From contig NZ_CP042911.1 in NCBI RefSeq assembly GCF_008065095.1, positions 1,920,001 through 1,952,000 of the forward strand: 32,000 bases of DNA, in the 5' to 3' direction. A program made the position numbers and the translations under genes. The stretch is from Gemmata obscuriglobus. Lineage in GTDB: Bacteria > Planctomycetota > Planctomycetia > Gemmatales > Gemmataceae. Under the pieces are notes generated by a model. The model did not search any database. It saw nothing but the letters and a program-made list of their open reading frames with translations, and had not been told where the DNA came from. Positions 4,727 through 23,072 of this stretch are shown here, one piece after another (the first letter of the stretch is position 1; the number at the start of each line of letters is the position of its first letter).

Positions 4727-4756
4727 TTGACACGCCGGCCCGAAATCGAACATCAT
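4727..4756 (+). promoter_or_regulatory. Candidate sigma70-like promoter for the PEP-CTERM gene
   Basis: TTGACA at 4727-4732 is followed by an 18-nt spacer and CATCAT at 4751-4756, ~30 nt upstream of the ATG at 4785. This is a pattern match only, and planctomycete promoter consensus is poorly defined. Confidence 0.25.
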
Positions 4757-4784
4757 TCGCCGCCCACCACACCTGGAGCGACGA

Positions 4785-5420
4785 ATGGCGGTCAGATTAT
4801 CAGCACTGAGCTTCTGCGCACTGACTTGCCTGCCCGCCCTCGCCAGCGCCGGACCGATCGCGTTCACCCTCGGGGCCGGGAACCTCACCACCTCCCCCGA
4901 AGCACCCCAGCTCGGCATGGCGCTCGTTCCGGTCGTGACATCGACGGCGACGCGCAGCGCCGAACTCGACAGCACCCAGCCCGTCACGCTCGGCGTGGTC
5001 GCCTACGAGCCGGGGCGCATCCCCACCCCCGACCCGCGCGACGTTCATCCGGACGGCACCACCCACTGGAACAACGACGGGTACTTCGCGGTCGATGTGA
5101 ACCTGGTCGATTACGCCTCCGGCGAGAGCGCGATCCTGACGCTGCACGGGCGCGCCCACATGTACAGCAACTACGCCACCGGCTCCGGCTGGAGCGGGCA
5201 AACGGTGTTCTGGTTCGACGAGCGCGAGCAGGTGACGCTCGGCGGGAACACGTACACGGTCTGGGGGGCGAACCGGTTCACCGACGGGAACGGGCAGGCC
5301 GCGGTCAACGTGTGGGTCGGGTCTGGCGCCCCGGTCGCGACCCCGGAGCCGGGGACGCTCGTTCTGGCGGCCCTCGGGCTGGCCCCGATCGGGCTGCGCC
5401 GGTTCCGCCGCACGAAGTGA
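4785..5420 (+). CDS. PEP-CTERM sorting-domain secreted protein
   Basis: It has an N-terminal signal peptide (MAVRLSALSFCALTCLPALASA). The C-terminus, ...VATPEPGTLVLAALGLAPIGLRRFRRTK, is the PEP motif plus a hydrophobic helix plus a basic tail, the signature of exosortase substrates. Confidence 0.8.
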   Translation: MAVRLSALSFCALTCLPALASAGPIAFTLGAGNLTTSPEAPQLGMALVPVVTSTATRSAELDSTQPVTLGVVAYEPGRIPTPDPRDVHPDGTTHWNNDGYFAVDVNLVDYASGESAILTLHGRAHMYSNYATGSGWSGQTVFWFDEREQVTLGGNTYTVWGANRFTDGNGQAAVNVWVGSGAPVATPEPGTLVLAALGLAPIGLRRFRRTK

Positions 5421-5499: not shown

Positions 5500-5607
5500 A
5501 GAATATTCTGGCTTCTCCATCGAGCTTTGGTGATACGCGCCCTCACCTCGGCCAAGCCGTAACAGCCAGCGTAGGCTTAATACCAACACGCGTTCAGAAG
5601 TACCCGT

Positions 5608-6935: not shown

Positions 6936-9900
6936 TCACGGCTTCGCGCGGGGCGCCGGTGCGGTGCGAAGGGGCGCGGTCAGCTCGGCCACCTTCGCCT
7001 GTGCGGCCTTCAGCAGCGGGTCGCGCACGAAGTTGCTCGTGAAGCCCAGTTGGTGCGGCCCGGCGCTCTTGAGTGCGGCGGCCCCGCGCCTGACGGAGAA
7101 GCCCCAGTCGGCCGGCTCCTCGCCGTTCAGTTTGAGTGCGACGGCGGTGGCGATGTCTCGCATCTGCAAGGTGCGTTCGCGCGAGGAGGCGAACTCGCGC
7201 GCGTCGCCGAACGCTGCCACCGCTGCGGCGGTGTCGGCCGCGGTTCCGCCCTGCGCGAGGTACAGCAGCGCCCAACCCCGCGCACGCTCTGTCCGCTTGG
7301 CATCGGCCGCAACGGCATGGGCCAGGGCCGCTCCTTCCCGGCAGTCGAGCATGAGGAGCGTCGAGAACCCGGAAACGGCGGCGTCCGGGTTCTCGCGTGC
7401 CCCGAGCCACGCCACAAACAGGCGCTGGAGGGCGGCCGGCGGGCGCCCCAGCGCGCCAGGTGCTGGCCGCTGCTCGGCACCGAGCCCGGCCCAGCAAGCG
7501 TGCCATGCGGTGTGTTCATCCCGTGGTGCATCGAGCCGCACGCGGTGCGCAGGCACCGCCTCAGTGCCAGGGAACGTGCCCAACAGGAGCATCGCGGGGT
7601 ACGTGCCGCGTTCCGGCGACCACTGCGTTAGCGCGGTCACCGCGTTTCGTTTCGCGTCGGCGGCGTACCAGCCCTTGAGATCCTGAGCCAGTCGCGCGTG
7701 GGCCGCCCGGTGCAACCGCTCGGCCGCGTTCGGGTTCTCGATCGCTTCGACTATTCCCACGAACGCCCGTTCGTTCGCCAGGAGTTCGGCGAAGATGGCG
7801 CGGGCGTCCGGGCCGGCGCCGGTGACGGCCTTGAGTTTCGTCCAGACCGGGTGCTTGAACGTGTCCGGGTTCGCGGCGAACGCGGCCGCGGCGCGCTGCC
7901 AGTCGGCCCGACGGAGCACGGGCAGGACGGCGGCGCACCGCCGCGCGATCTCGGGGTTGTCCGACTTCAGCCCCGCGAGTACGGCAGCCTTGGCCGGGGC
8001 ACCGAGTTCTTTCAGCTTCTCCTCCGCAGCCTCTCGTTCGGCAAAACTTTCACTGCCCAACTGCTCCACGAGTTGCGCTGCGACCGGGGCCGGCGGTTTC
8101 TTCGGCCCCTTCGGCTTTTGCTCATCAAGGAACGCCCGGGCCTTCGCGTGCGCCGCGGCGCGGGACGGGTCATCGTTGAAGCCGAAGTCTTCCGCGCCGT
8201 ACCCTGCGATTACGGGGCGCCGGTTCTCGCGCTGGAACAGCCCCTTGGCGCGGGCGAACCCGTACTCGAACGGGTCCTGGTCGCACAGCAAGAGCGCCAG
8301 CGCGACGGCGTGGTCGCTGGCGATCAGCCGGCGCGACCGCGGGCCGGGTGAATAACGGCTCGGTGGCGGGGGGAAAACAACAGGCGTGTCGTCGCCGTAG
8401 AGTTCGGCGAAGAGCGGCAGATCGCTCGCCGCGCCGAACTGTGCGACCGCGCGGAGGGCGCCGCACCGCTCGCCCGCGCTGCGCTTTCCGTCTCCGGCGA
8501 TGAGCCGCGCGGCCGGTAGCACATCGGCCGCTCGCGAAACGACGGCCAGATCGAAACTGTTGTACAGCACCGATGTGTCCGCTCGGCGCGGGAGCCACGC
8601 GGCGAGCAACTTCCAGAACACGCGATCGCTCCCGCTGGGGAGTGCGGCGGTCGCGTCGTACCGCTTCTCCGGCCCCGGGGCGATCTCCAGACCCCGCAGT
8701 CCCAGCGACATTCCTTTGGCGTAGTGCAGGCGCCCTTCGCCCGTCGAGAATAAGGCCCGGGTGTCGTTCGCCGGGGGAGCGGTTTCGGTTCCCGGGTAGC
8801 TCCCCAGGAACAGCAGATACGCGGCTTCCTCCGCGGTGTCCGCGGGCCAAACGGGGATGCGGAAGAACACCGCCATATTGCTCTGAAAGCGCGTCCCGAT
8901 CTCGGTCACCGCGTCACGGTACTGCCGGGCTGCGGCCGCCGGGTTGGCTTCCGCGGCGTCGAGCCGGGCGACCCACTCCGGGCGCTTCAGAATTCGGGCG
9001 AACAGCTCGCGCGATGCGGAAGTGTTCCCGGTGATCGCCTGGAACCGTTTCCAGATCGGGTGCGCGGGTTGCGGTTCGACCTTCGGGTCGAACCCCTTCA
9101 CCAGGGCGGCGAGTGCGTCTTTCCGCACCCCTACCAGCACCACCGCACACCGGGCGCGGACTTCGGGATCGTCGGACCGCAGCCCGGCCGTCAGCGCGGG
9201 TTCCGCTTTCGTGCCGTGCGCGCGGAGTGCTTTCTCCGCAGCCTCTCGTTCGGCAAAACTCTCACTGCCCAACTGCGCGATCAGCCTCGCCATCGAATCG
9301 TCAACGGGGTGCGGTGCCGGTGCGGTCGCGTTCCCGCGTGCGGGCGGCGCGTCGGCCGAACCGGTCATTGCCAGCCCGCCGCACGCGAGCGCGAGGCACA
9401 CCGCTCCCACGACCGCGCCGGCCCGCAACTGATCGAACAGCATGGCTTTCAGGACCACCGCCGCGGCCGCGCCCGCGGTTCCGCCGGCGGCGCCGCTCAC
9501 CGCGCCCGTCGTTGCCCGGGTGAGTTCGGCCGAAACGGTCATCGATCCGGAGGTCAGCACCGCGAGCGCGACCGAAGGCGCGACCCCGCGGGCGGCGAGT
9601 CGTGACGCGAGCTTGCGCTTCGCGGCGGCGAGCCGGCTGGAGACGGTGCCTTCTGGTACGCCGAGTTCCGTTGCCGCCTCGCGCCGCGACAGCCCTCTTA
9701 ACTCGCACAGCACCACCGCCACGCGGTACAACTCTGGAAGCCGCGCGAGTTCCTCGTCGACGATCGCGGCCTGCTCGGCGACCGCGAGCGCGTCGCCGGG
9801 CGCCGGGGCCGGGCTCGTGTGATCCCGTTTCCGATCCGGGTCAGCGCGTCGCTCGCGCCGGTCGCGTGCGAGTCGCACCCCGCGGGCGGTCCGCACGGCG

Positions 9901-10175
9901 ACCCCGTACAGCCACCCGGCCACGTTCGCCCCGCGCACGCTCCCCGCCTTGCGGGCCAGCACCAGGAACGTCGCCTGGAACGCGTCCTCCGCGTCGTGCG
10001 GGTCGGACAGCACCCGCCGACACACCGCGAGGACCATTGATCCGTGCCGGCGGACCAACTCCGCGAACGGGTTTTCGGCGCGCGACGCGATGAACGCGCT
10101 CAGGAGTTGCGCGTCCGTGTTCGGTGTGTCGTGGGCAAGGGCGAAACGCGCCAGCGCGACGGCGGAACGGGGCAC
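6936..10175 (-). CDS. Membrane-tethered ECF sigma factor fused to a large, internally duplicated extracytoplasmic region with HEAT-like motifs
   Basis: The start is GTG at 10175, with GGAGGG 7 nt upstream. Sigma region 2 reads DAEDAFQATFLVLARKA...VAGWLYGVAVRTA. Region 4 HTH reads LPELYRVAVVLCELRGLSRREAATELGVPEGTVSSRLAAAKRKL. A TM segment follows (LRAGAVVGAVCLALACGGLAMTG). After it come two ~400-aa repeats, each opening with L(I/V)xQLGSESFAEREAAExxL...AGL(R/K)SD(D/N)PE(V/I)xxRCAxVL. Confidence 0.85.
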   Translation of the reverse strand: MPRSAVALARFALAHDTPNTDAQLLSAFIASRAENPFAELVRRHGSMVLAVCRRVLSDPHDAEDAFQATFLVLARKAGSVRGANVAGWLYGVAVRTARGVRLARDRRERRADPDRKRDHTSPAPAPGDALAVAEQAAIVDEELARLPELYRVAVVLCELRGLSRREAATELGVPEGTVSSRLAAAKRKLASRLAARGVAPSVALAVLTSGSMTVSAELTRATTGAVSGAAGGTAGAAAAVVLKAMLFDQLRAGAVVGAVCLALACGGLAMTGSADAPPARGNATAPAPHPVDDSMARLIAQLGSESFAEREAAEKALRAHGTKAEPALTAGLRSDDPEVRARCAVVLVGVRKDALAALVKGFDPKVEPQPAHPIWKRFQAITGNTSASRELFARILKRPEWVARLDAAEANPAAAARQYRDAVTEIGTRFQSNMAVFFRIPVWPADTAEEAAYLLFLGSYPGTETAPPANDTRALFSTGEGRLHYAKGMSLGLRGLEIAPGPEKRYDATAALPSGSDRVFWKLLAAWLPRRADTSVLYNSFDLAVVSRAADVLPAARLIAGDGKRSAGERCGALRAVAQFGAASDLPLFAELYGDDTPVVFPPPPSRYSPGPRSRRLIASDHAVALALLLCDQDPFEYGFARAKGLFQRENRRPVIAGYGAEDFGFNDDPSRAAAHAKARAFLDEQKPKGPKKPPAPVAAQLVEQLGSESFAEREAAEEKLKELGAPAKAAVLAGLKSDNPEIARRCAAVLPVLRRADWQRAAAAFAANPDTFKHPVWTKLKAVTGAGPDARAIFAELLANERAFVGIVEAIENPNAAERLHRAAHARLAQDLKGWYAADAKRNAVTALTQWSPERGTYPAMLLLGTFPGTEAVPAHRVRLDAPRDEHTAWHACWAGLGAEQRPAPGALGRPPAALQRLFVAWLGARENPDAAVSGFSTLLMLDCREGAALAHAVAADAKRTERARGWALLYLAQGGTAADTAAAVAAFGDAREFASSRERTLQMRDIATAVALKLNGEEPADWGFSVRRGAAALKSAGPHQLGFTSNFVRDPLLKAAQAKVAELTAPLRTAPAPRAKP

Positions 10176-10698: not shown

Positions 10699-12294
10699 GT
10701 GCGCCGCCGTTCGCCACACGCCCGCGCTGCTCGCACCCTCCAACGAATTGGGGACGTGCCGGTAGCGCGGTTCACCCTGATCCGCCTTCGGAGGCCCGCC
10801 CGCGTGCGACCCGCCGTTCTCGCCGCTTTGACCTTGCTGCTGATCCACGGAACCGGGCGGGCGGCATCGCCCGCGGAGCTGGCGGCCCAGGTAGATGCGC
10901 GCATCGCCGCGCGGTGGAAGGCCGAGAAGGTTGCGCCCGCGGCTCTAGCCACCGACGCCGCGTTCGCGCGCCGCGCGTACCTCGATCTGGTCGGGCGCAT
11001 CCCGACGGTGGCGGAGGCGCGAGCGTTCATCAAGGACCGCGGCGCCGACAAGCGGCCGGCGCTCGTCGCGCGGCTGCTCGGCTCCGGCGGGTACGCCCGT
11101 CACTGGGCCACCTTCTGGCGCCGCGAGTGGGTGCCGCAGCCCCCGGCCGCGAGCGGCGACGAGATCGAGGGCTGGATCGCCGCCCAGTTGCGCGACAACG
11201 CCCCCTACGACCGCGTGGTCCGCGCCCTGCTGACCGCCCCGGCGGCGCGCGCCCCCGGGACCGCCCCGCAGACGTTCCTGGTCGCCAGCGAGTTCAAGCC
11301 CGAGAACCTCGCGGCCAACATCACCCGCGCGTTCCTGGGCATCAACCTGGACTGCGCGCAGTGCCACAACCACCCGTTCGCCCGCTGGACCCGCGACCAG
11401 TTCTGGGAAACGGCGGCGTTCTTCGCTCGCCCCTCGGAGGCCGGGGCCGGGGCTCAGAAGATCGAGATCGGCGTTCCGGGCACCGGCACGAAGCTCGGCC
11501 CGCAGCTCCTGACCGGGGAGCCGGTGACGTGGCCCGCGGCCCTCGCCCCCGACACCGGCCGCGGCGTGCTCGCCGCGTGGGTGACGAAGAAGGGCAACCC
11601 GTACTTCGCGAAGAACGCGGTCAACCGGGTGTGGGCGCAGCTCTTCGGCACCGGGCTGGTGGAACCGCTCGACGACCTGAGCGGCGAGAACCCCGCGAGC
11701 CACCCCGAACTGCTCGACGAACTCGCGGCGGCCTTCGCCGACAGCGGCTTCGACCTGAAGCACCTCACCGCTGCGCTGGTGCAGACGCGGACGTACCAGC
11801 TCTCGTCGGTGGCGCCACCGGGCGGCAGTTCGGACCCGCGGCTGTTCGCCCGCGCCGCCGTCCGCGGGCTGACGGGCGAGCAACTCTACGACAGCCTCCG
11901 GGGCGCGGCCGGGCTCCCGCCGGACCGCACCGACCTGGACCCGCTCAACGCGGCGGCCGCGCGCAAGCGGTTCGCCGAGCGGTTCCGGGGCGAGCGCGCG
12001 GGCACCGCCCAGCGGTCGATCCTGCAAAGCCTCGCCCTCATGAACGGCGCCGTCACCGCCGAACTGACCGACCCCGCCACGTCGCCGGCGCTCAAGGCGG
12101 TGGCGGGCGCGCCGTTCCTCGACGCCGCGGCGAAGGTGGAGGCGCTGTACCTCGCCGCGCTCGGGCGGACGCCGACCGCCGAGGAGTCCGCGGCGGCTGT
12201 CCGGCACCTGGCGCGCGGCGCGGACGCCGGCCCGGCGCTCGCGGACGTGCTCTGGGCGCTGCTCAACGGCAGCGAGTTCGGCACCAACCATTAA
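10699..12294 (+). CDS. DUF1549 (PSCyt2) / DUF1553 (PSD1) domain protein, exported
   Basis: DUF1549-type block: FARRAYLDLVGRIPTVAEARAF...LLGSGGYARHWATFWR...LGINLDCAQCHNHPFARWTRDQFW (CxxCH at 11353-11367). DUF1553-type block: NPYFAKNAVNRVWAQLFGTGLVEPLDDL...HPELLDELA..F...DLKHL...TRTYQLSS and a C-terminal LLNGSEFGTNH. There is a hydrophobic signal segment (AVLAALTLLLIHG). The start is ambiguous: GTG 10699 (track), GTG 10756, or GTG 10804 (the last has GGAGG 9 nt upstream). Confidence 0.85.
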   Translation: MRRRSPHARAARTLQRIGDVPVARFTLIRLRRPARVRPAVLAALTLLLIHGTGRAASPAELAAQVDARIAARWKAEKVAPAALATDAAFARRAYLDLVGRIPTVAEARAFIKDRGADKRPALVARLLGSGGYARHWATFWRREWVPQPPAASGDEIEGWIAAQLRDNAPYDRVVRALLTAPAARAPGTAPQTFLVASEFKPENLAANITRAFLGINLDCAQCHNHPFARWTRDQFWETAAFFARPSEAGAGAQKIEIGVPGTGTKLGPQLLTGEPVTWPAALAPDTGRGVLAAWVTKKGNPYFAKNAVNRVWAQLFGTGLVEPLDDLSGENPASHPELLDELAAAFADSGFDLKHLTAALVQTRTYQLSSVAPPGGSSDPRLFARAAVRGLTGEQLYDSLRGAAGLPPDRTDLDPLNAAAARKRFAERFRGERAGTAQRSILQSLALMNGAVTAELTDPATSPALKAVAGAPFLDAAAKVEALYLAALGRTPTAEESAAAVRHLARGADAGPALADVLWALLNGSEFGTNH

Positions 12295-12309
12295 TCGGAG
12301 ACCGACACC

Positions 12310-13239
12310 GTGAGATCCCACCGCCCGCGCCGCGGGTTCACCCTCATTGAGCTGCTGGTGGTGATCGCGATCATCGCGATCCTCATCGGGCTGCTGCTAC
12401 CCGCCGTGCAGAAGGTGCGGGCCGCCGCCGCCCGGCTCCAGTGCGCGAACAACCTGAAGCAGATCGGGCTGGCGGTCCACAACTACCACGACGCGGAAAA
12501 GGGCCTGCCCTACCTCGTCTTCAACAACACGTCGTCCGTCAGTCCGAAGCACGCCTGGACAGCGTACCTGTTGCCGTACCTGGAGCAGGGGGCGGTTGCG
12601 AGTTCGTATTCGTGGAACGTGGACTTCTCCGATCCGGCGAACCAAGCGGCCGCAAACGCCTCGATCCCGGTCTTCGTCTGCCCGGCGACGCCCCGCTCGA
12701 AGGCCAAGGTGGACCTCGTCCCCGGGTTCGCCACGGCGACGAACCCGGCGGTCACCGGCTCGCCGAGCGACTACGTCGGCTTCTGGCGGTTCTGGGACCC
12801 CATCGCGTTCCCAACGACGCCGTGGCGGGACACGGTCGGCGCGCTGGACGGGTACGACAACACCCAGCGCAAGCTGACGCAAATCACGGACGGCACGTCG
12901 AACACGGCGATCATCGGCGAGTCGGCCGGGCGGCCGGACAAGTGGGTGCGCGGGAAGTTGGACGGCGCCCTGCCGGTCCAACACGGGCTCGGCGGGGCGT
13001 GGGTCGGATGGGAAGCGACTTCGGTGAAGAGCTTCGACTCGACCGGCCAGACCAACCACGGCCCGTGCATTATCAACTGCTCGAACAACGGCGGGCTGTA
13101 CGGCTTCCACACCGGCGGCATCAACGTCCTCTTCGCGGACGGCTCGGTTCACTTCCTCCGGGACGGGGCGGACAAGTTGGTGGTCTACGCGCTCGTCAGT
13201 TACAACCTCGGCGAGGTCCTTTCGAACAGCGACTTCTGA
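12310..13239 (+). CDS. DUF1559 protein 1 (type IV pilin-like N-terminal cleavage/methylation signal, H-X9-DG C-terminal motif)
   Basis: GTG start. The N-terminus reads RRG|[52 protein letters not shown]. The conserved core is TDGTSNTAIIGE, and the C-terminal motif is GFHTGGINVLFADGSVHFL. Confidence 0.9.
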   Translation: MRSHRPRRGFTLIELLVVIAIIAILIGLLLPAVQKVRAAAARLQCANNLKQIGLAVHNYHDAEKGLPYLVFNNTSSVSPKHAWTAYLLPYLEQGAVASSYSWNVDFSDPANQAAANASIPVFVCPATPRSKAKVDLVPGFATATNPAVTGSPSDYVGFWRFWDPIAFPTTPWRDTVGALDGYDNTQRKLTQITDGTSNTAIIGESAGRPDKWVRGKLDGALPVQHGLGGAWVGWEATSVKSFDSTGQTNHGPCIINCSNNGGLYGFHTGGINVLFADGSVHFLRDGADKLVVYALVSYNLGEVLSNSDF

Positions 13240-13293
13240 CGGTTCAGGGTTCGCCACCCGTCCGTACTTCACTCAACCGTAACCCGTGAAGAC

Positions 13294-13719
13294 ATGAAGG
13301 TGATCGTTTTGGTTCGCCGTTCGTTCATTGCTTTCGCCTCGGCCGCAGCGGTGTCGTGTGGCGGCGCCGAACGGTCGGACGTTCAGCCCGTGCGGGGCAC
13401 GTGCCTCGCGGCCGGTCGTCCGGCCGTCGGCGCGCGCGTCGTTCTCGTGCCCGTCGCTGCCGGACGGGGTTCCCCCGCCTCCGGTGTCGCCGGTTCGGAC
13501 GGCACGTTCCGGCTCACGACGGTCACCAAAGACGACGGGGCGAAGGAGGGCGAGTACGCGGTCACGATCACGTGGCCGGACCCGCAGCGCGCCAACGGCG
13601 ACGGGACCGGCGAAGCGGCCGACCGGCTGCGCGGGGCGTACCGGGACCCCGCCAAGCCGTTCTGCCGGGTAACGGTCCGGCCGGGGGAGAACGAGTTACC
13701 CCCGTTCGAAATCAAGTGA
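13294..13719 (+). CDS. Small lipoprotein 1 (beta-sandwich / carboxypeptidase-regulatory-like), partner of DUF1559-1
   Basis: It has a signal plus lipobox-like AAAVSC|GG. It shares motifs with three paralogs downstream: P.RG.....G.P..GA.V, DGTFRLTT....[26 protein letters not shown], and a terminal P.FEI. The fold assignment is tentative. Confidence 0.75.
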   Translation: MKVIVLVRRSFIAFASAAAVSCGGAERSDVQPVRGTCLAAGRPAVGARVVLVPVAAGRGSPASGVAGSDGTFRLTTVTKDDGAKEGEYAVTITWPDPQRANGDGTGEAADRLRGAYRDPAKPFCRVTVRPGENELPPFEIK

Positions 13720-13788
13720 TGTCTCGTCCCGTACTCGACATCCGTCCCGGCTTGCAACCCAACGTTCACGCTCGATCCGAGGTGCTCC

Positions 13789-14712
13789 ATGAAGCGCGTC
13801 CGCTCCACTCGCCCCGCGTTCACCCTCATTGAGCTGCTGGTGGTGATCGCCATCATCGCGATCCTCATCGGCCTGTTGCTGCCGGCCGTGCAGAAGGTCC
13901 GCGCCGCCGCCGCCCGGATGGTGTGCGGCAACAACCTGAAGCAGATCGGGCTGGCGGTCCACAACTACGCCGGCGCCAACGAGGACTGCTTCCCGAAGTA
14001 CGACGGCACCAACCGCCGGCTGAGTTGGACCACGCTGCTGCTCCCGTACCTGGAGCAGGACAACGTGTACAAGATGATCGACCAGACCCAGACCTGGGCC
14101 GCGACCGCCAACGGGTGCCAGAACCGGGCCGCCGGGCAGGTCCCGCTCAAGGTGTTCGTGTGCCCGGCGAACCCCGGCGCACAGCGGATGCCGCTCATCG
14201 CCGACCCGGAGGTGACCGGCGGCAGCTTCCGCGCCGCGCCCACCGACTACACCGTGGCCGAGGGGTTCTACTACTCGACCAACCCGTTCAACTGGGTCGA
14301 GGGCACCATCCGCGGCACCGCCGCGATCGGCAAGCGGCGCATCACCGACGTGACCGACGGCACCTCGAACACGCTCGTCATCTTCGAGAACGCGGACGTG
14401 CCGAACCTGTGGATCAACGGCAAGCTGACCACCGACAACACGAACACGGTCACCACCTACCAGCACAGCAACAACGGCACCTGGTGCAACCCGAACAACA
14501 ACAACATGCGGGGCTGGGACGCGACCGGCACCGTCCAGTTCGGCCCGTACATCGTGAACAAGCGCAACGGGGCTGCGCTGTACGGGTTCCACACCGGCGG
14601 CGCGCACGCCCTCATCGGCGACGGGTCGGTCCGGTTCTTCGGCGAGAACACCACCGCCGAGACCGTCAAGCGGTACGTCAGCTTCAACGGCGGCGACATC
14701 AACGACGACTGA
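13789..14712 (+). CDS. DUF1559 protein 2 (pilin-like N-terminus, H-X9-DG)
   Basis: The N-terminus reads TRPA|[52 protein letters not shown]. The core is [12 protein letters not shown], and the C-terminal motif is [19 protein letters not shown]. Confidence 0.9.
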
Positions 14713-14753
14713 GCCGGGGCGGCCGAACCGTCCCGATCCGAGCGAGGGGCAGA

Positions 14754-15182
14754 ATGCGAATCTGGTTGACGATGGCCGCGGTGTGCGCGGCGCTGGCGGC
14801 GGCCGGGTGTGGCTCGAAGCGGCCCGGCGAGGTGCCCGTGTACCCGGTGAAGGGGCGGGTCACCTTCAGGGGCGAGCCGATGCCGCACGCGGTGGTCACC
14901 TTCTACCCGCTCGGGCAGCCGTTCGCGCAGGCGCTCAAGTGCCGCGCGAATGCCGACCCGGACGGGAACTATCGCCTCACCACTTATGAACTGAACGACG
15001 GCGCCCCGGAGGGCGAGTACGGGGTCATCCTGTACGTCCCGCCGGCGCCCCCGGAGCCGCACGCGCTCGAGGTGCCGAACCCGCCCGACCGCTTGAAGGG
15101 CGCGTACCTGGACCCCGCGAAATCGAAGCTGAGGTACACCGTCCGGCCCGAGCCGAACACCATTAACATCGACCTGCCGTAA
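14754..15182 (+). CDS. Small lipoprotein 2, partner of DUF1559-2
   Basis: The ATG at 14754 lies inside track ORF 13923..15182. The sequence is MRIWLTMAAVCAALAAAGC|GS (lipobox), VYPVKGRVTFRGEPMPHAVVTFYP, DGNYRLTTYELNDGAPEGEYGV, PDRLKGAYLDPAKS, PNTINIDLP. Confidence 0.75.
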   Translation: MRIWLTMAAVCAALAAAGCGSKRPGEVPVYPVKGRVTFRGEPMPHAVVTFYPLGQPFAQALKCRANADPDGNYRLTTYELNDGAPEGEYGVILYVPPAPPEPHALEVPNPPDRLKGAYLDPAKSKLRYTVRPEPNTINIDLP

Positions 15183-15189
15183 CGGAGGG

Positions 15190-16110
15190 GTGCGCGTGAA
15201 GCGGTTCACTCGCGGGTTCGCCGCGGTCGACCTGTTGGCGGCCGTCGCGCTGGGGACGGCCGCCGCCGGGCTGTTGCTCCCGGCCGTGCAGAAGGTGCGG
15301 GCGGCCGACGCCCGCGCCCGGTGCGCCGACCACCTGCGCCTGATCGGGAAGGGCGCGGCCGGGTACGCCGCGGCCCACGACGGGAACCTGCCGCGCGACG
15401 GCTCGGCGCCGCGCGGGAGTTGGAACAGCGAGATCCTGGCCCACATCGGCGAGGAGAAGCTGGCGAAGGCGTACGCCCCGGGCCAGGACTGGTTCGCGCC
15501 CGGCCCGGGCGGCAACCGGGACGTGGCCGCGACCCGCGTGCCCGCGTTCCTGTGCCCGGCGGCGCCGCACCCGGACCGCTGGGTGCTCACGCAGGACCCC
15601 GACGACGCCGCGCGGAGCTTCAAGGCCGCCCCGACGGACTACGTCGGCTCCGCGGGCGCGTACTACCAGAACAACGACCCGGGCAACCTGCACCCGGGCG
15701 CGATGCACCACCGCAAGATCACCCGCCGCATCCACGTGTCGGATGTTCAGGACGGCGCCGCCAACACGCTGCTGGTGGTCGAGATGGCGGACAAGCCGAA
15801 CGGGTGGCGCGCCGGGAAACTGGCCGAGGACCGGTCGGGGAAGCCGCAGATGCCGGCGCTCAACGGCCAGTGGGCGGCGCCGAACTGGAACCACCTGCGC
15901 TCGTACACGGCCGACGGCCGGGAGCAGTTCGGCCCGTGCGCGGTGAACTGCGCGAACGGGGCCAGCATCTACGGGTTCCACCCCGGGGGCGCGAACGCCC
16001 TGTTCGTGGGCGGGTCGGTGCGGTTCCTCAAGGCCGGGCTGTCCCAGGAACTGCTGGTCGCGCTCGTGAGCATCGCCGGCGGCGAGGTGCTCGGCCCGAA
16101 CGACTTTTGA
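15190..16110 (+). CDS. DUF1559 protein 3, divergent paralog with degenerate pilin signal and degenerate H-X9-DG motif
   Basis: GTG start at 15190. The N-terminus TRG|[44 protein letters not shown] replaces [16 protein letters not shown] (E5 becomes D, and the Ile/Val helix is replaced by Ala/Gly). The core [12 protein letters not shown] is retained. The C-terminal motif [19 protein letters not shown] has DG changed to GG. Confidence 0.8.
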
Positions 16111-16133
16111 CCCACCACAGGAGATCCGGACTC

Positions 16134-17018
16134 ATGCGCGCTCGCCGTGGCTTCACGCTGATCGAGCTATTGGTGGTGATCGCGATCATTGCGATCCTCA
16201 TCGGCCTGTTGCTGCCCGCCGTGCAGAAGGTGCGCGACGCCGCGGCGCGGATGAGCTGCCAGAACAACCTGAAGCAGATCGGCCTCGCGCTGCACAACTA
16301 CGAGAACGCCAACGGCAAGCTCCCCCCGCGGGCCTTCCCGGGCACCGGGGCCGCGTGGGGCACGCTGATCCTGCCGCACATCGAGCAGGACAACGTGTTC
16401 AAGCTGTACCGCCCGGACCTCGACTGGCGCGACCCGCTCAACCAGGACGCGGTCACCAAGCCGGTCAAGACGTACAAGTGCCCGTCCTCGCCCGAGCGGA
16501 CCGCGAGCGGCACGTTCAACGGCGGGGCGTGGGCGTCGAGCGTCAGCGACTTCGGGGCCAACGGCGGCCTCGACCCGTCCCTCATGACGCTCGGCTGGCT
16601 CCCCGCGACGACCAGCCGCAACGGGGTCTTCATGCAGGGGATCGAGTTGCGGGTCACCGACATCACCGACGGCACCTCGACCACCCTGGCCGTGGTCGAG
16701 ATGGGCGGGCGGCCGAACCGCTGGAACGCCGGCCGGGACACCGGGGCCATCCAGAACGCCGGGGTGAAGGGGCCGTGGGCGCACACCCACAACCACATCG
16801 AGGCCCGCGGGCACTCGGCCGACGGCACCACCAAGCCCGGCGCCTGCACCGTCAACTGCACCAACGCCGACGGCATCTACGGGTTCCACACGAACGGCGC
16901 GAACGTGGCGCTGATGGACGGGTCGGTCCGGTTCGTCACGCCGGCGCTGAACAACTTCGTCCTGTACGCCGTCGCGACCCCGAGCACCGGTGAGGTGGTG
17001 AATGGCTCGGACTTTTAG
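16134..17018 (+). CDS. DUF1559 protein 4 (pilin-like N-terminus, H-X9-DG)
   Basis: The ATG at 16134 lies inside track ORF 15321..17018. The sequence is MRARRG|[52 protein letters not shown], then [13 protein letters not shown], then [19 protein letters not shown]. Confidence 0.9.
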
Positions 17019-17436
17019 CTTGGCCGCCCTGTTCGTCGTGCTGGCCGCCGGCTGTGGACCCCGGGACGGCCGCAAGCCGGTGATCCCTGTTTCGGGACGG
17101 GTGACGTGCAAGGGCGAGCCGATGGCCGGCGCGATGGTCGGGTTCCACCCGCTCGACGACCCGGACCCGCGGGCCGTACGCGCGCAGGCCACCGCCGACA
17201 AGGACGGCCGCTACACGCTGACCACCTACGCCACCGGCGACGGCGCGCCGGCCGGCGCGTACGCGGTCACGGTCTACTGGCCCGGGCCGCGCCCGAAGGG
17301 CCAGGCCTTGGAACCGGGCGAGGACGAAGAGGTCCCGCCGGACCGGCTCAAGCGCGCGTTCGCGGACCCGAGAGCGACCAAGCTGCGCGCCGCCGTGCGC
17401 GCCGAACCGAACACGATCGACTTCCACCTGCCGTGA
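17002..17436 (+). CDS. Small lipoprotein 3, partner of DUF1559-4 (17-nt overlap)
   Basis: The sequence is [18 protein letters not shown]|GP (lipobox), [74 protein letters not shown]. The start overlaps the 3' end of the preceding gene. Confidence 0.75.
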
Positions 17437-17447
17437 GGACCCCGGCC

Positions 17448-18356
17448 GTGCCCCGACGTTCCGCCTTTACCCTGATCGAACTGCTGGTGGTGATCGCGAT
17501 TATTGCGATCCTCATCGGCCTGTTGCTGCCGGCCGTGCAGAAGGTGCGCGAGGCCGCCGCGCGCATGAAGTGCCAGAACAACCTGAAGCAGATCGGGCTG
17601 GCCATGCACAATTACGCGGGCGCGAACAACGGGCTGCCGCCGCGCCGCTCGTACCCGCTGCCGGAGCCGAACGTCGGCTGGCCGGTGCTGATCCTCGATT
17701 ACCTCGAGCAGGGGAACGTGAAGGCCGCGCTGAAAATGGATCAGAGCTATTTCGCCCCCGAGAACAACGAGGCCCTCAAGAAGCCGCTGCCGGTCTACCA
17801 GTGCCCGGCCGCCCCGAGCCCCGAGCGGCTCATCAAAATGAACGCCAACGGCATGTACGGGGCCGTCGGCGACTACTACGCGTGCAACATCGTTCAAGAC
17901 CCCACGTTCGCCATGCCCGGCGCGGCCGGGGGCACCAGCGCCGCACTGATCGACGACATGGCACTGAGTCAAGGAAGTGCGGTGCGTCCGCTCACAAACT
18001 TCCCGGACGGCACCTCAAGCACCCTCGTGCTGCGCGAGGTGGCGGGCCGCCCGGACGGGTACAACGCGACGGGCGCCCGGACGCCCTACGCCGACGGCGT
18101 TTCTTCGATCGGGGCGTGGGCGTCGTACCAGTCGGCGGTGGTCGAGAGCTGGGACGAGTCGGGCACCACCAAGAACGGCACCTGCGTCGTCAATTGCAAC
18201 AACTTTTACGGAACGTACGCGTTCCACCCGGCCGGCGCGAACCATGTGTTCGCCGACGGGTCGGTCCGCACGGTCCGCAAAGGGGTCAACAAGTACCTGT
18301 ATTACGCCCTGGTGACCCGCAACGGCGGTGAGGTGCTGAGCGATGGCGAGTTCTGA
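17448..18356 (+). CDS. DUF1559 protein 5 (pilin-like N-terminus, H-X9-DG)
   Basis: GTG at 17448, in frame within track ORF 17106..18356, whose upstream part is Arg/Gly-rich junk overlapping lipoprotein 3. The sequence is VPRRSA|[52 protein letters not shown], then [13 protein letters not shown], then [19 protein letters not shown]. Confidence 0.85.
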
Positions 18357-18783
18357 CCGCGCGCCGCCCGCGGCGCGGCTGGCAGGGGCGCTGGCCCTGC
18401 TCACCGCGCTCGGCTGCGGCGCGGGCGGCCCTCCGCCGGCCCAGCCGACGCGCGGCGAGGTCCGCCTTCAGGGGAAGCCGGTGGCCGGCGCCTGGGTGGT
18501 GCTCACCGCGACCGAGGGCGATAAGGCGCGCGCCATGAAGCCGTTCGGCCGGACCGGCCCGGACGGCACGTTCCGGCTCCGCACCTACGAGGGCGAGGAC
18601 GGCGCGCCCGCCGGCGAGTACGCGGTCACGATCACCTGGCCCGGCCCGCCGCCGAAGGGCGACCCGGACGCGACCGAAGGGCCGGACCGGCTCAAGGGGC
18701 GGTTCGCGGACCCGGCCAAGGCGCGGTGGAAGGTCCAGATCGCCCCCGGCGACAACACGCTCCCGGCGTTCGTACTCGACTGA
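18343..18783 (+). CDS. Small lipoprotein 4, partner of DUF1559-5 (14-nt overlap)
   Basis: The sequence is ...[13 protein letters not shown]|GA (lipobox), [73 protein letters not shown]. Confidence 0.75.
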
Positions 18784-18809: not shown

Positions 18810-20096
18810 GTGCGCACCTTTACGAACCCACTCACCCGCCGCGGACTGTTCCGCTCGGCGGCCGGCGCCGGCCTCGGGGCCGGGTTCACGTCCGGCTGGC
18901 TCCGCGCGCTCGCCGCGGGCGCGCCCAAGAAGCCCGCCAAGTCGGTCATCGTGCTGTGGCTCGACGGCGGGCCGGCGACCATCGACCTGTGGGACCTGAA
19001 GCCGGGCCACGCGAACGGCGGGCCGTTCCGGGCGATCGACACCGCCGCCCCCGGCCTGAAGATCGGCGAGCACCTGCCGAAGCTCGCGAAGCTCGGCAAG
19101 GACCTCGCCGTGGTGCGGTCGATGTCCACCAAGGAGGGCGACCACGGGCGGGCCACCTACCTCCTGCGCACCGGGTACACCCCGCTGGGCGCGATCCAGT
19201 ACCCGGCCGCCGGCGCGGTCATCGCCAAGGAGCTGGGGGCCGAGGCCGGCGACCTGCCGAACTTCGTCAGCGTCGCGCCGGCGCGCAACGCCGCGTCCGG
19301 CGGCGGGTTCCTCGGGCCGCACTTCGACCCGCTCGTGGTCGGCGAGCTGACCGCCCCGCAGGACGGGCTGAAGGTGCCCGACCTGGCCCGCACCGCCGGC
19401 GTCGGCGACGACGCGCAGCGGGCGCGGCTCGAACTGCTCGCCGGCGCCGAGCGGCAGTTCGCCGCCGGCCGCGAGTCGGCGGTCGCGGGCAGCGTCCGGG
19501 CCGCGACCGCCCGCGCGGTGCGGCTCATGAAGCCGGAGGCCGCGGCGGCGTTCGACCTGGAGCAGGAGAAGCCGAAGGCGCGCGACGCCTACGGCCGCGG
19601 GCTGTTCGGTCAGGGGTGCCTGCTGGCCCGCCGGCTGGTGGAGCGGGGCGTGCCGTTCGTGGAGGTGACGCTCGACGGCTGGGACACCCACCAGAACAAC
19701 TTCGACCGCGTGAAGGACCTGTGCGGCGCCCTCGATGCCGGGTTCGCCGCTCTGCTGGCGGATCTGAAGGACCGCGGGATGCTGGACAGCACGCTGGTGG
19801 TGTGCCAGGGGGAGTTCGGCCGCACGCCCAAGATCAACGGCAACACCGGGCGCGACCACTGGCCCGCGTCGTGGGCCGTGGCCCTCGCCGGCGGCGGGCT
19901 GAAAACGGGGCAGGCGGTCGGCAGAACGAGCACGGACGGCGCCGCGGTCGAGGACAAGCCGCGCGGGGTGCCGGACCTGATCGCCACGGTCGCGAAAGCG
20001 GTCGGCATCGACCCGAAGAAGCAGAACATGTCGAACGTGGGCCGGCCCATCCGGGTCGCCGACCCGGACGCCGAGCCCATCAAGGAGCTGCTGTGA
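18810..20096 (+). CDS. DUF1501 protein 1 (alkaline-phosphatase/sulfatase-superfamily fold, Tat signal)
   Basis: GTG at 18810, 5 nt after AGGAG (18800-18804), in frame with track ORF 18726..20096. Twin-arginine signal: LTRRGLFRSAAGAGLGAG. DUF1501 blocks: VIVLWLDGGPATIDLWDLKPGH, VVRSMSTKEGDHGRA, FGQGCLLARRLVERGVPFVEVTLDGWDTHQNNF, LVVCQGEFGRTPKING..GRDHWPASWAVALAGGG. Confidence 0.9.
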   Translation: MRTFTNPLTRRGLFRSAAGAGLGAGFTSGWLRALAAGAPKKPAKSVIVLWLDGGPATIDLWDLKPGHANGGPFRAIDTAAPGLKIGEHLPKLAKLGKDLAVVRSMSTKEGDHGRATYLLRTGYTPLGAIQYPAAGAVIAKELGAEAGDLPNFVSVAPARNAASGGGFLGPHFDPLVVGELTAPQDGLKVPDLARTAGVGDDAQRARLELLAGAERQFAAGRESAVAGSVRAATARAVRLMKPEAAAAFDLEQEKPKARDAYGRGLFGQGCLLARRLVERGVPFVEVTLDGWDTHQNNFDRVKDLCGALDAGFAALLADLKDRGMLDSTLVVCQGEFGRTPKINGNTGRDHWPASWAVALAGGGLKTGQAVGRTSTDGAAVEDKPRGVPDLIATVAKAVGIDPKKQNMSNVGRPIRVADPDAEPIKELL

Positions 20097-21649
20097 ACCG
20101 GGTCATTTTCGTCGCGCTGGTCGGGGCCGCGGTCCTGTGCGCCGCGCCCGCGAGACCGGCGGAACCCGGCCCCAGCCCGCGGGCCGACGCGCTCGAACTG
20201 CTGTTCATCGGGGGCGAGAAGCCCGCGCGGCTGGAGCTGCGCGCCGAGATCGACGGGCGGCCCGTCCCCGCGGTCTGGGATGACACGTTCGCGAAGCTGT
20301 TCGCGTACTTCGACCGCGACGCCGACGGCGCCCTCGACGCCACCGAGGCGGCCCGCCTGCCGTCGGCGTTCGCGCTGCGGCAGGTGCTGTGGGGGCAGTC
20401 CACGCCCTTCACGGGCGCCGCGCCGCCGCTTGCGGACATCGACCTCAACGGGGACGGCAAGGCGAGCCCCGACGAACTCGCCGACTTCTACCGCCGGGCT
20501 GGGCTGGGCGGGGTGCTCGTGGGGGTCGGGAGGGCACCGGCGACCGATGCCTTAACCGATGCGCTGCTGAAGCACCTCGACACCAACAAGGACGGCAAGC
20601 TCACCGAGGCGGAGGTGAAGGCGGCCCCCGACGCGCTGAAGGCGCTCGACGCCAACGACGACGAGCTGATCGGCCCCGGCGAACTGGTCGAGCGCACCGC
20701 CTACCCCGGCGCGCTCGGGGCGATCCTGGTGACGGCCCCGGCGCCGAACGGGGCGCCCGACGCCGTCGCGGACGCGCTCCCGTTCGTGGTGCTGCCGCTG
20801 CGCACCGCGGACCGCGGCTGGGAGGCCGCCGTGGCGGCCCGTCGCGAAAAGGTCGGGCTATCGGCGTTCACGGCCGAGTCGCTACGTGGTCCGCGAAGGC
20901 CGTCACCAGCGGCCGTGTGGAAGGCACGGTTCGGGGAGAAGCTGACCGGCGGCGCGCTGGAGCCGGTCGGCGGAAAGCTCCCCGCGAGCGGCCGGCTCGT
21001 GTACGCCGCCGGCGCGGTGCGGCTCGAACTCCGGTCGGACGAGGGGAAGCTCGCCGAGCCGGTCGCCGCCGCGCGCAAGCGGTACGCCGCCCAGTTCGCC
21101 GAGGCCGACGCCGACGCGAACGCGCGCCTCGACCCGAAGGAGCTCGCGGCCCCGAAGGCCGGGACGCTCAAACAGCTCGCGGCGGCGGCCGACCGGAACG
21201 GCGACGGCGCCTTGAGCGACACGGAGCTGACCGCGTGGCTCGACCTCCAGGACCAGATCGCGAGGGGGCACGTGCTGCTGACGGTGATCGACCACGGCGC
21301 CGGGCTGTTCGAGCTGCTGGACGCGGACCACGACGGGGCGCTGTCGGTGCGCGAGCTGCGCGGCGCGTGGGACCGGCTGACGGCCGCGGGGTGCGTGACC
21401 GACGGCCGTTTCGACCGCGCGAAGCTGCCGCGCCAGTTGCTCGCCGCGATCAGCCGCGGGCACCCGAAGTCGTCCCCGGGCAAGCCGGCCCGGCCCGGCC
21501 CGGCGTGGTTCGTGGCGATGGACCGCAACGGCGACGGGGACGTGTCGCGCCGCGAGTTCACCGGCCCGGCTGCGGTGTTCGACACGCTCGACGCCGACAA
21601 GGACGGCCTCCTCGACGCCCGCGAGGCCGGCGCCGCGGTTAAAAACTGA
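20093..21649 (+). CDS. Secreted multi-EF-hand (8 Ca2+-loop) protein 1, stop/start-coupled to DUF1501-1
   Basis: The GTG at 20093 overlaps the DUF1501 stop (GTGA). The N-terminal part of track ORF 18956..21649 is an out-of-frame shadow of DUF1501. The signal-like N-terminus is VNRVIFVALVGAAVLCAAPARPA. There are eight DxDxDG-type loops: DRDADGALDATE, DLNGDGKASPDE, DTNKDGKLTEAE, DANDDELIGPGE, DRNGDGALSDTE, DADHDGALSVRE, DRNGDGDVSRRE, DADKDGLLDARE. Confidence 0.8.
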   Translation: MNRVIFVALVGAAVLCAAPARPAEPGPSPRADALELLFIGGEKPARLELRAEIDGRPVPAVWDDTFAKLFAYFDRDADGALDATEAARLPSAFALRQVLWGQSTPFTGAAPPLADIDLNGDGKASPDELADFYRRAGLGGVLVGVGRAPATDALTDALLKHLDTNKDGKLTEAEVKAAPDALKALDANDDELIGPGELVERTAYPGALGAILVTAPAPNGAPDAVADALPFVVLPLRTADRGWEAAVAARREKVGLSAFTAESLRGPRRPSPAAVWKARFGEKLTGGALEPVGGKLPASGRLVYAAGAVRLELRSDEGKLAEPVAAARKRYAAQFAEADADANARLDPKELAAPKAGTLKQLAAAADRNGDGALSDTELTAWLDLQDQIARGHVLLTVIDHGAGLFELLDADHDGALSVRELRGAWDRLTAAGCVTDGRFDRAKLPRQLLAAISRGHPKSSPGKPARPGPAWFVAMDRNGDGDVSRREFTGPAAVFDTLDADKDGLLDAREAGAAVKN

Positions 21650-21776
21650 CCGCGCCCGGACAAAGCGTTGTCAGCCCTCGGGTTCGCATCGCTTCCGCGC
21701 CCCCGAAAAGTGATAATGCCGGTGCCCGCCGCCCGCACCCGGCTCGACCTGAATCGCTCGCTCACCGGAGGCCCTG

Positions 21777-23072
21777 ATGTTCTCACTGCGTGTTCGGCCG
21801 TCGCGCCGGGACTGGCTGCGGCTCTCGGCCGCCGGCGCGGTCGGCGTGTCACAGTCCGGGTGGCTCGGCGCGCTGGCCGACGACGCCGCCCGCGCCCCGA
21901 AGAAGCACAAGTCCGTCATCCTCTTGTGGATGAACGGCGGCCCCGCGACCATCGACCTGTGGGACCTGAAGCCGGGCCACGACAACGGCGGCCCGTTCCG
22001 GGAGGCCGCCACCGCCGCACCCGGGCTGAAGATCAGCGAGCACCTGCCGAAACTCGCGAAGCTCGGCAAGGAGCTGGCCGTGGTCCGCTCGATGGCGACC
22101 CGCGAGGGCGACCACCAGCGGGCGCGCGTCGTCGGCCTGACCGGGTACACCCCGCAAGGGGCGATCCAGTTCCCCGCGCTCGGCGCGCTGGTGGCGCACG
22201 AGTTCGACGACCCGAAGGCCGACCTGCCCGGGTTCGTCGCGGTCGGCGGCCGGTCGGACGTCGGCGGCGGGTTCCTCGGGCCGCGGTTCGCGCCGTTCGT
22301 GGTGGGCGGGGAGCGCGAGCGCGGCGGCCCTGCGAACGCCGACCTGCGCGTCGCCGACCTCGACCCACCGGCCGGCCTCGGCACGGAGGCGCAGGTGAAG
22401 CGCCTCGACCTGCTCGCGGGGCTGGAGAAGGACTTCGCGCCCGGGAAGGCGCACCCGGTGGCCGAGACGATGCGCGCCGCGACCGACCGCGCCGTCCGGC
22501 TGATGCGCCCGGAGGCCGCCGCTGCGTTCCGGCTCGAGGACGAGACGCCGCAGGTGCGCGACGCCTACGGCCGCGGCACCTTCGGCCAGGGGTGCCTGCT
22601 CGCCCGCCGGCTGGTGGAACGGGGCGTGCCGTTCGTGGAAGTGACGCTCGACGGCTGGGACACGCACAACAACAACTTCGACCGCGTCAAGGCGCTCTCC
22701 ACCACGCTCGACACCGGGTTCTCCGCTCTGCTGGCGGACCTGAAGGACCGCGGGCTGTTGGACCGCACGCTGGTGGTGTGCCAAGGGGAGTTCGGGCGGA
22801 CGCCGAAGATCAACGGGCAGAGCGGCCGCGACCACTGGCCCGCGTCGTGGGCCGTGGCCCTCGCCGGGGCCGGCGTCAAGGGCGGGCAGGCGGTCGGCAA
22901 GACCAGCAAAGACGGCACGCAGGTGGAGAGCGACCCGACCCGCACCGCGGACCTCGTCGCCACCGTGATGAAGGCCGCCGGGCTGGATCCGATGAAGCAG
23001 AACATGTCGAACGTGAGCCGGCCCATCCGGCTGGCCGACCCGAGCGGCAAACCGATCAAGGAGCTGCTGTGA
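21777..23072 (+). CDS. DUF1501 protein 2 (Tat signal), paralog of 18810..20096
   Basis: ATG at 21777, 5 nt after GGAGG. Tat motif: PSRRDWLRLSAAGAVGV. It is collinear with paralog 1 and shares long identical runs: GGPATIDLWDLKPGH, HLPKLAKLGK, FGQGCLLARRLVERGVPFVEVTLDGWDTH, LVVCQGEFGRTPKING, GRDHWPASWAVALAG. Confidence 0.9.
   Translation: MFSLRVRPSRRDWLRLSAAGAVGVSQSGWLGALADDAARAPKKHKSVILLWMNGGPATIDLWDLKPGHDNGGPFREAATAAPGLKISEHLPKLAKLGKELAVVRSMATREGDHQRARVVGLTGYTPQGAIQFPALGALVAHEFDDPKADLPGFVAVGGRSDVGGGFLGPRFAPFVVGGERERGGPANADLRVADLDPPAGLGTEAQVKRLDLLAGLEKDFAPGKAHPVAETMRAATDRAVRLMRPEAAAAFRLEDETPQVRDAYGRGTFGQGCLLARRLVERGVPFVEVTLDGWDTHNNNFDRVKALSTTLDTGFSALLADLKDRGLLDRTLVVCQGEFGRTPKINGQSGRDHWPASWAVALAGAGVKGGQAVGKTSKDGTQVESDPTRTADLVATVMKAAGLDPMKQNMSNVSRPIRLADPSGKPIKELL

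Follow-up and report, generated by a model that had tools for sequence, protein, structure and literature searches.

Genes of the DUF1559 family form a planctomycete-restricted expansion and the largest group of paralogues in these bacteria, with 68 members in P. limnophila, including two essential ones (PMC10632474), 74 copies in R. baltica, some of which are stress-regulated (PMC2754498), and, in Tuwongella immobilis, 91 proteins that combine N_methyl with SBP_bac_10, 25 of which were detected in membrane fractions (PMC8567305). The literature assigns the family no function and treats its genes as stand-alone; the sole trace of a pairing is a passing remark that DUF1559 genes are flanked by signal-peptide genes. 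Here, we describe a window of Gemmata obscuriglobus DNA (the whole stretch that was analyzed, 32 kb long, with a guanine-cytosine (GC) content of ~70%), in which positions 12310-18783 carry nine consecutive genes on the + strand: five DUF1559 pilin-like genes, which we refer to as D1 to D5, and four genes for lipoproteins of 141-146 amino acids (aa), which we refer to as L1 to L4, in the order D1 L1 D2 L2 D3 D4 L3 D5 L4. D1 to D5 are members of the DUF1559/TIGR04294 family. Three traits of these genes are undescribed in the DUF1559 literature, namely a near-obligate L partner, a conserved D-L-D3 triple, and the nesting between DUF1553 and DUF1501 genes. A first-pass annotation of the sequence had supposed that the partnership was not described as a defined system, and our full-text literature searches indeed found no paper that defines a DUF1559 partner family.

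The closest described systems each share some of these traits. With type IV pilins and pseudopilins (PilA, PilE, GspG), the D proteins have in common a Gly at position −1, a Phe at +1, a Glu at +5, ~20 hydrophobic residues in a row, and a long helix at the N-terminus. They differ from them in a head of ~230 aa for which no solved pilin head was a significant match, in occurring as dozens of paralogues per genome, and, for each D in a D-L pair, in having a lipoprotein partner of its own. Known machines for type IV pili and for type II secretion each have a single pilotin or PilP-type lipoprotein rather than one for every pilin. The archaeal bindosome (the Bas system of Sulfolobus) is analogous to a D-L repertoire in concept only: There, sugar-binding proteins with class III (pilin-type) signal peptides are displayed on the envelope for nutrient uptake (PMC3047682). 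Those proteins are true solute-binding proteins of ATP-binding cassette (ABC) transporters and are encoded together with the transporters, whereas D has no such sequence or fold match and the 32-kb window contains no ABC transporter. We know of no lipoprotein partner in the bindosome. Last, the Verru_Chthon cassette proteins A-D (TIGR02596-TIGR02599) likewise belong to a multigene cassette of the Planctomycetes-Verrucomicrobia-Chlamydiae (PVC) group with pilin-type N-termini, but they have other partner proteins and another architecture; the D proteins matched these models at the N-terminus only, with E values of 1e-5 to 5e-5, far below the cutoffs.

DUF1559 and lipoprotein genes are neighbors across Planctomycetota

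All four D→L pairs that had been reported for the array are present, although they do not stand strictly in a row, as D3 interrupts the series between pair 2 and pair 3, a point implicit in the first-pass annotation. Two junctions were confirmed as overlaps, of 17 nucleotides (nt) for D4/L3, which is conserved in orthologues, and of 14 nt for D5/L4, and the nonoverlapping junctions measure, in order, 54, 69, 41, 7, 23, and 11 nt. A repeat analysis revealed conserved segments of 60-85% nucleotide identity that recur with a period of ~1.3-1.5 kb; judged from its sequence, the array is an old tandem duplication. A promoter and terminator scan, which is uninformative for planctomycete promoters, showed no terminator-like site on the + strand inside the array and no sigma-70-like promoter.

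Two samples of loci bear on how general the pairing is. The first was anchored on the lipoproteins and comprised 80 metagenome loci that were retrieved with an L alignment and scanned for both families by hidden Markov model (HMM). Among the 51 L genes for which both flanks could be assessed, 48 (94%) had an adjacent DUF1559 gene on the same strand, which was located upstream only in 24 cases, downstream only in 19, and on both sides in 5; two of the three L genes that had neither adjoined another L gene. The second sample was anchored on D and comprised 80 GTDB genome loci retrieved with a DUF1559 alignment, all on Planctomycetota-type contigs. Here, 31 of the 80 DUF1559 genes (39%) had an L neighbor, which was downstream in 14 and upstream in 17, while 49 had neither. 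The partnership proposed from this single window is therefore real and general, and the fraction of paired DUF1559 genes lies well above the negligible level at which the first-pass annotation would have abandoned the idea. What did not hold up is a fixed order with D before L, since loci with L→D only are nearly as common (19 versus 24 fully assessable cases). With a heuristic assignment of start codons, the D→L junctions had a median gap of ~18 nt, with 18 of 53 overlapping, and the L→D junctions had a median gap of ~48 nt, none of them overlapping.

The same pairing was found in T. immobilis, where D-L pairs occurred in 3/3 loci that were picked solely by similarity to D4, and where all five small open reading frames (ORFs; 149-159 aa) at these loci belonged to the L family (E values of 1e-12 to 9e-51). 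The adjacency spans metagenome loci with a GC content of 55% to 70% and extends to Planctomycetia loci with a low GC content at third codon positions (GC3; L006 and L080, where three-digit numbers denote loci rather than genes). Because it recurs in dozens of unrelated loci, the adjacency goes far beyond chance. D-L thus looks like a widespread two-protein envelope module in Planctomycetota, and apparently an unreported one.

The unpaired DUF1559 genes were often followed by other small ORFs encoding lipoproteins or membrane-anchored proteins (L027, L051, L054, L065, L066, L075, and L079). These include a family of 86-87 aa (L027 and L051) and a helical family of 114-137 aa (L065 and L066) with the shared motif ARAG[DS]W..AE..LY.F. 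The small anchored partners of DUF1559 may not be limited to the L family.

D proteins have a pilin-like N-terminus and a divergent head

All five D proteins scored well above the PF07596 gathering score of 23.3 bits (D1 165.1, D2 137.3, D3 78.9, D4 162.5, and D5 140.5 bits; E values from 9e-22 to 5e-48) and passed the cutoff of 19 bits for TIGR04294, the H-X9-DG model, with 35.8, 27.9, 22.9, 35.1, and 28.3 bits for D1 to D5. D1, D2, D4, and D5 also matched N_methyl and TIGR02532 above cutoff and carry a class III signal peptide, with G-1/F+1/E+5 followed by ~20 hydrophobic residues. Sequence matches in the PDB were confined to residues 1-65 and led to geopilin, PilE, and GspG, and the best score against the GspG equivalog TIGR01710 was 41.1 bits versus a cutoff of 88.85, with only the N-terminal 60-97 residues aligned. 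The AlphaFold2 model of D4 (predicted local distance difference test score, pLDDT, of 93) displays a helix at residues 9-60 and a mixed alpha/beta globular head, so that the extended N-terminal helix packed on a globular head that characterizes a pilin is found in D4 as a prediction only. In an alignment of 56 D sequences, residues 11-50 were strongly conserved and so was a C-terminal block around H-X9-DG, whereas the head was less conserved, with insertion hot spots after residues 72, 129, 153, 168, 205, and 247.

The near identity of the N-termini of D1, D2, D4, and D5 was borne out: Over the 50 codons from F+1, they share 90-94% of their amino acids and 84-91% of their nucleotides, compared to 36-45% identity between full-length D proteins. 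At the nucleotide level, however, this similarity is not specific to the locus. Identical residues are encoded by identical codons in 67-85% of cases among these four genes and in 65-74% of cases against the divergent D3, and the same N-terminal sequence also heads DUF1559 genes on unrelated metagenome contigs. The identity of the N-terminal DNA is thus due to amino acid conservation combined with codon bias (GC3 of ~90-95%). We also considered gene conversion at the 5′ ends of the D genes and rejected it, because codon identity was no higher than against D3 and because the N-terminus is family-wide.

D3 represents a noncanonical subtype. Its N-terminus reads G-FAAVD-LL, with an Asp at +5, and N_methyl was not matched; it reached its TIGR04294 score even though its motif is H-x9-GG, the DG being kept in D3 orthologues. 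Translation probably starts at the GTG at 15196, behind GGAGG, and the gap to L2 amounts to 7-13 nt depending on the D3 start. Orthologues of D3 that are 71% identical occur on two contigs, VFQN01001113.1 (L092) and JAESFO010000061.1 (L093), which both keep the order D2 (80% identical), L2 (73-75%), and D3; D2-L2-D3 is therefore a conserved triple. These orthologues likewise carry Asp at +5, their hydrophobic stretch is weaker, and the idea that D3 is a pseudogene or a decayed copy was rejected because the odd N-terminus is shared by conserved orthologues. The subtype may not be a substrate of prepilin peptidase. As a side observation, a D3-type N-terminus (G-F/L-x-x-x-D, not G-F-T-L-I-E) usually belongs to a gene that follows an L gene or closes an array; in T. 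immobilis, it was found after an L gene in L166 and at the array end in L165.

L proteins belong to a large family of small lipoproteins

L1 to L4 are 35-40% identical and share 27 invariant columns, which include the lipobox Cys, DG..L.T, DGA..G.Y.V, and DRL...DP, in agreement with the common skeleton that had been described for them. By sequence criteria, all four are lipoproteins, with a signal peptide that ends in the lipobox Cys, and in an alignment of 38 L-family sequences, at least 90% retain the lipobox G-C. No model of Pfam or NCBIfam reached its cutoff for L1 to L4. Against a gathering score of 32.3 bits, PF13620 (CarboxypepD_reg) scored 24.2 bits for L3, 19.5 bits for L4, and 15.8 bits for L1, with no match for L2; UniRef and NCBI nevertheless label all four as “carboxypeptidase regulatory-like domain-containing.” The AlphaFold2 model of L3 (pLDDT of 88) is a seven-strand beta-sandwich, for which the best Foldseek matches in the PDB were transthyretin/HIUase, the intradiol-dioxygenase sandwich, DUF3823, and CBM41. 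As all of these matches had E values of at least 2e-3, the fold is best described as a generic prealbumin-like (transthyretin-like) one. The model is compatible with the PF13620 clan, since L3 shares the predicted seven-strand sandwich with that clan, although all L scores are below the Pfam gathering score.

A search of 50%-identity clusters with the L-family profile matched 49,095 of them at E ≤ 1e-3, or 24,562 at E ≤ 1e-10, and the top matches were mostly 135-160 aa long; L is therefore a very large family without a curated model. The family is marked by the lipobox, a G-DGAP-G-Y-V hairpin, the DUF1559 neighbor, and, in close members, a C-terminal PDRL...DP...L. Some matches to the profile were of a different build: P0055, P0073, and P0116 are tandem L-L fusions with two sandwich domains, one lipobox, and a linker rich in Pro, Glu, and Lys, and P0061 and P0124 are very long proteins with 10-14 L-like repeats.

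D and L genes diverge as pairs under purifying selection

In a comparison of 88 adjacent pairs, the matrix of identities among D proteins was correlated with that among L proteins, with r = 0.69 for D→L and r = 0.57 for L→D (Mantel p = 0.001 each), and in 27 of the 88 pairs, the nearest D neighbor was also the nearest L neighbor. Orthologues of the D4-L3 pair, with the same 17-nt overlap, were found on five metagenome contigs (L085-L087, L090, and L091), and orthologues of D5 and L4 were found together in L005, where they are 69% and 54% identical, respectively. These findings show D and L genes to duplicate and diverge as one unit, which does not in itself prove contact between the proteins.

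The first-pass annotation had suspected diversifying selection in the variable center of the D proteins. The data point the other way: By the Nei-Gojobori method (NG86), the ratio of nonsynonymous to synonymous substitution (dN/dS, or omega) was 0.11-0.15 for D4 orthologues, with a maximum pN/pS of 0.40 per 20-codon window, and 0.13-0.37 for L3 orthologues, with a maximum window of 0.65 that is located in the signal peptide. We reject diversifying selection, as both the pairwise and the sliding-window analyses of the D4-L3 orthologues displayed purifying selection. Such purifying selection on orthologous pairs implies that the differences between paralogues reflect old functional divergence rather than an ongoing arms race.

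An unusual combination was observed in L088 and L089. There, the L gene resembles L3 about as closely as true orthologues do (pN of 0.26 versus 0.22-0.24), but the upstream D is far more divergent from D4 (pN of 0.36 versus 0.07-0.10), which may reflect partner exchange or accelerated divergence of D.

A possible two-subunit receptor or capture unit

We read the locus as an envelope module of two genes that was expanded in tandem long ago and in which D and L form cognate receptor or capture units, a reading that we hold tentatively and with a little less than even confidence. D carries a class III signal peptide; its N-terminal helix of ~50 residues would anchor it to the cytoplasmic membrane or a pilus-like fiber, exposing a head of ~230 residues with loops that differ between paralogues. 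L would be the cognate lipoprotein of ~145 aa, folded as one transthyretin-like beta-sandwich and anchored through its lipidated Cys. The two genes, which are inherited together and diverge together, are probably transcribed as one unit and in many cases coupled in translation. Each D head would bind its own L to yield a two-subunit receptor or capture unit, and the many paralogous pairs per genome would provide a repertoire of specificities. The pairs might feed a type-IV-filament or type-II-secretion-like machine, which could be the fiber-mediated macromolecule uptake reported in Gemmata; in the present locus, the modules would act in one operon with the DUF1553/DUF1501 pair. The gene families, the statistics of the pairing, the joint divergence, the predicted folds, and the purifying selection are shown by the data. 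For D-L, we infer a physical contact, the processing of D as a prepilin and of L as a lipoprotein, and a function in ligand binding or uptake.

A bolder version of the receptor reading connects it to macromolecule uptake. In G. obscuriglobus, dextran was found bound on fibers that arise from crateriform structures (PMC5394234), and a review of 2025 calls the mechanisms and players of macromolecule uptake “still unknown” (PMC12673574). It is conceivable, but in our view rather unlikely, that D-L pairs supply the missing repertoire of receptors with which planctomycetes take up macromolecules, a bacterial counterpart of the bindosome that these crateriform-structure fibers would display or cycle. 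If so, the gene family that has expanded most in the phylum and the L family with its ~49,000 clusters would be one modular capture system, in which each pair would supply a substrate-specific pilin-anchored head and a lipoprotein co-receptor. The cognate D-L pairs offer a concrete testable unit, and the L family makes a case for a new family model in genome annotation. The DUF1559 expansion, moreover, becomes divisible into genes with an L partner, genes that have a different small lipoprotein as partner, and the noncanonical D3 type.

A number of observations weigh against D-L as receptor or capture units. Foldseek returned no significant match for the head of the D4 model, and ligand binding therefore lacks support from homology; the Pfam name “SBP_bac_10” is likewise unbacked here, because no solute-binding-protein fold was matched, such proteins being absent from both the PDB sequence matches and the Foldseek matches of D. 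Within the 32-kb window, there are no genes for pilus or type-II-secretion assembly. The sampled loci contained no D-L fusion proteins, and the long matches to the L profile were L-L tandems or had mis-called starts. The co-divergence of D and L can be explained by co-inheritance alone. Since no L gene adjoins ~60% of the DUF1559 genes sampled, L is not a universal requirement, and because the D-anchored sample is biased to the closest matches of D1, even the 39% of paired genes may exceed the genome-wide fraction. The other small ORFs downstream of unpaired DUF1559 genes, with junctions of −14 to +12 nt, belong to families unrelated to L.

Much of what is seen at the junctions would also suit an L protein that serves as a dedicated biogenesis factor for its cognate D, i.e., in chaperoning, sorting, or docking, and that, rather than being a co-receptor, would keep or convey the D head in the periplasm and play no part in the final function. 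In a pair, a single L goes with each D, and the two genes lie close together or overlap; among orthologous pairs, L changes more quickly than D (compare the omega ranges above); and L is small, with a single domain and no enzymatic signature. Such a role is harder to reconcile with the many DUF1559 genes that have no L neighbor, from which it appears that DUF1559 proteins generally need no L, or with the L→D arrangement, which lacks overlap and is as common as D→L. Known pilin systems, furthermore, make do with one pilotin or PilP-type lipoprotein per machine. We regard a biogenesis role as unlikely, while taking it seriously.

The setting of the array suggests another alternative, in which D and L never touch and are independent envelope proteins kept together in an operon by a shared pathway, namely that of the flanking genes. 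The array is nested between a DUF1549/DUF1553 gene (hereafter PSD1), which ends 15 nt before D1, and a DUF1501 gene, which starts 26 nt after L4. The same nesting was observed in L085-L093 and in L165 of T. immobilis, and the order D-L-PSD1-DUF1501 was observed in L005, L105, and L166. Yet, L adjoins D in 94% of cases regardless of what the other neighbors are, and D and L co-diverge pair by pair. In the D-anchored sample, PSD1 or DUF1501 was found on the same strand in just 3 of 32 paired loci versus 0 of 48 unpaired ones (Fisher p = 0.06), which is only suggestive of a general tie of D-L pairs to DUF1553/DUF1501. A shared pathway without contact strikes us as quite improbable.

A conflict system, such as phage-receptor variation, decoys, or toxin-immunity under diversifying selection on the head, would similarly present a constant N-terminus and a head with variable loops, in numerous paralogues per genome. 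It is very hard to square with the purifying selection on the orthologues or with the retention of pairs, and even of the D2-L2-D3 triple, across genomes at 71-80% identity, and we consider it highly improbable. The PADLOC defense models had no match for D1, D4, L1, and L3, and a defense system was rejected on this ground. That local duplication produced the pairing by chance, with one ancestral adjacency amplified in Gemmata without functional meaning, would fit the tandem duplication of the array but is refuted by the adjacency in 48/51 independent metagenome loci, in L006 and L080, and in T. immobilis, and we give it next to no credence.

Flanking genes and the wider locus

The positions of all features are collected in Table 1, together with the gene order in related loci. 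Downstream of the array, the DUF1501 gene likely starts at the GTG at 18810, behind AGGAG, and the EF-hand gene that directly follows it is itself followed by a second DUF1501 gene. Comparable neighbors recur elsewhere: A PSD1 family gene precedes the D/L array in L090, L091, L092, L093, and L165 of T. immobilis; in L085-L087, L092, and L165, a DUF1501 gene comes after the D/L genes; and an EF-hand gene occupies the matching position in L165 and L001. DUF1549/DUF1553 and DUF1501, two other giant planctomycete-specific families, may be functionally linked to some D-L modules.

Table 1. Features of the D/L locus in the 32-kb window of G. obscuriglobus, followed by D3-subtype sites and gene orders in related loci.
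Feature	Position	Strand	Length	Remarks
Fae, small PEP-CTERM protein, and DUF1464 protein among upstream neighbors	3180-3731, 4731-5420, 5581-6630
Extracytoplasmic function (ECF)-type sigma factor	6936-10175	−		Regions 2 + 4
DUF1549/DUF1553 (PSCyt2 + PSD1) protein	10699-12294	+	531 aa	PF07583 E 2e-40; PF07587 E 1e-41
D1, DUF1559 pilin-like	12310-13239	+	309 aa	Canonical prepilin N-terminus (G-FTLIE); PF07596 E 4.5e-48; N_methyl E 9e-10
L1, partner lipoprotein	13294-13719	+	141 aa	GobsT_16480, WP_010034602; lipobox AVSC, Cys22; L-family HMM E 3e-39; weak PF13620
D2, DUF1559 pilin-like	13789-14712	+	307 aa	PF07596 E 1.3e-39; N_methyl; TIGR04294
L2, partner lipoprotein	14754-15182	+	142 aa	GobsT_16500; lipobox AAGC, Cys19; L-family HMM E 3e-52
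D3, DUF1559, noncanonical N-terminus	15190 (15196 likelier)-16110	+	~305 aa	PF07596 E 8.7e-22
D4, DUF1559 pilin-like	16134-17018	+	294 aa	100% identity to G. obscuriglobus “putative major pilin subunit”
L3, partner lipoprotein	17002-17436	+	144 aa	GobsT_16530; lipobox AAGC, Cys18
D5, DUF1559 pilin-like	17448-18356	+	302 aa	GTG start
L4, partner lipoprotein	18343-18783	+	146 aa	GobsT_16550; lipobox ALGC, Cys25; L-family HMM E 2e-43
DUF1501 protein	18810-20096	+		Twin-arginine signal; PF07394 E 2e-112
Multi-EF-hand protein	20093-21649	+	518 aa	EF-hand Pfam families
DUF1501/EF-hand region	18810-23072			Includes second DUF1501 gene
D3-subtype site, L092	2319-3795
D3-subtype site, L093	2837-3788
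D3-subtype site, L166 (T. immobilis)	11501-12475
D3-subtype site, L165 (T. immobilis)	12657-13646
Gene order, L090 and L091				PSD1-D4-L3
Gene order, L085-L087				D4-L3-DUF1501
Gene order, L092				PSD1-D-L-D-D-L-DUF1501
Gene order, L165 (T. immobilis)				PSD1-D-L-D-L-D-D3type-DUF1501-EF-hand
Gene order, L005, L105, and L166				D-L-PSD1-DUF1501

On the other side of the array, the gene for the ECF-type sigma factor, which is fused to a HEAT-repeat-containing extension of ~880 residues, is divergent from the operon and separated from it by an intergenic region of ~520 nt; it is a candidate regulator. The neighbors farther upstream, including the genes for the formaldehyde-activating enzyme (Fae), the PEP-CTERM protein, and the DUF1464 protein, appear to be unrelated to the array.

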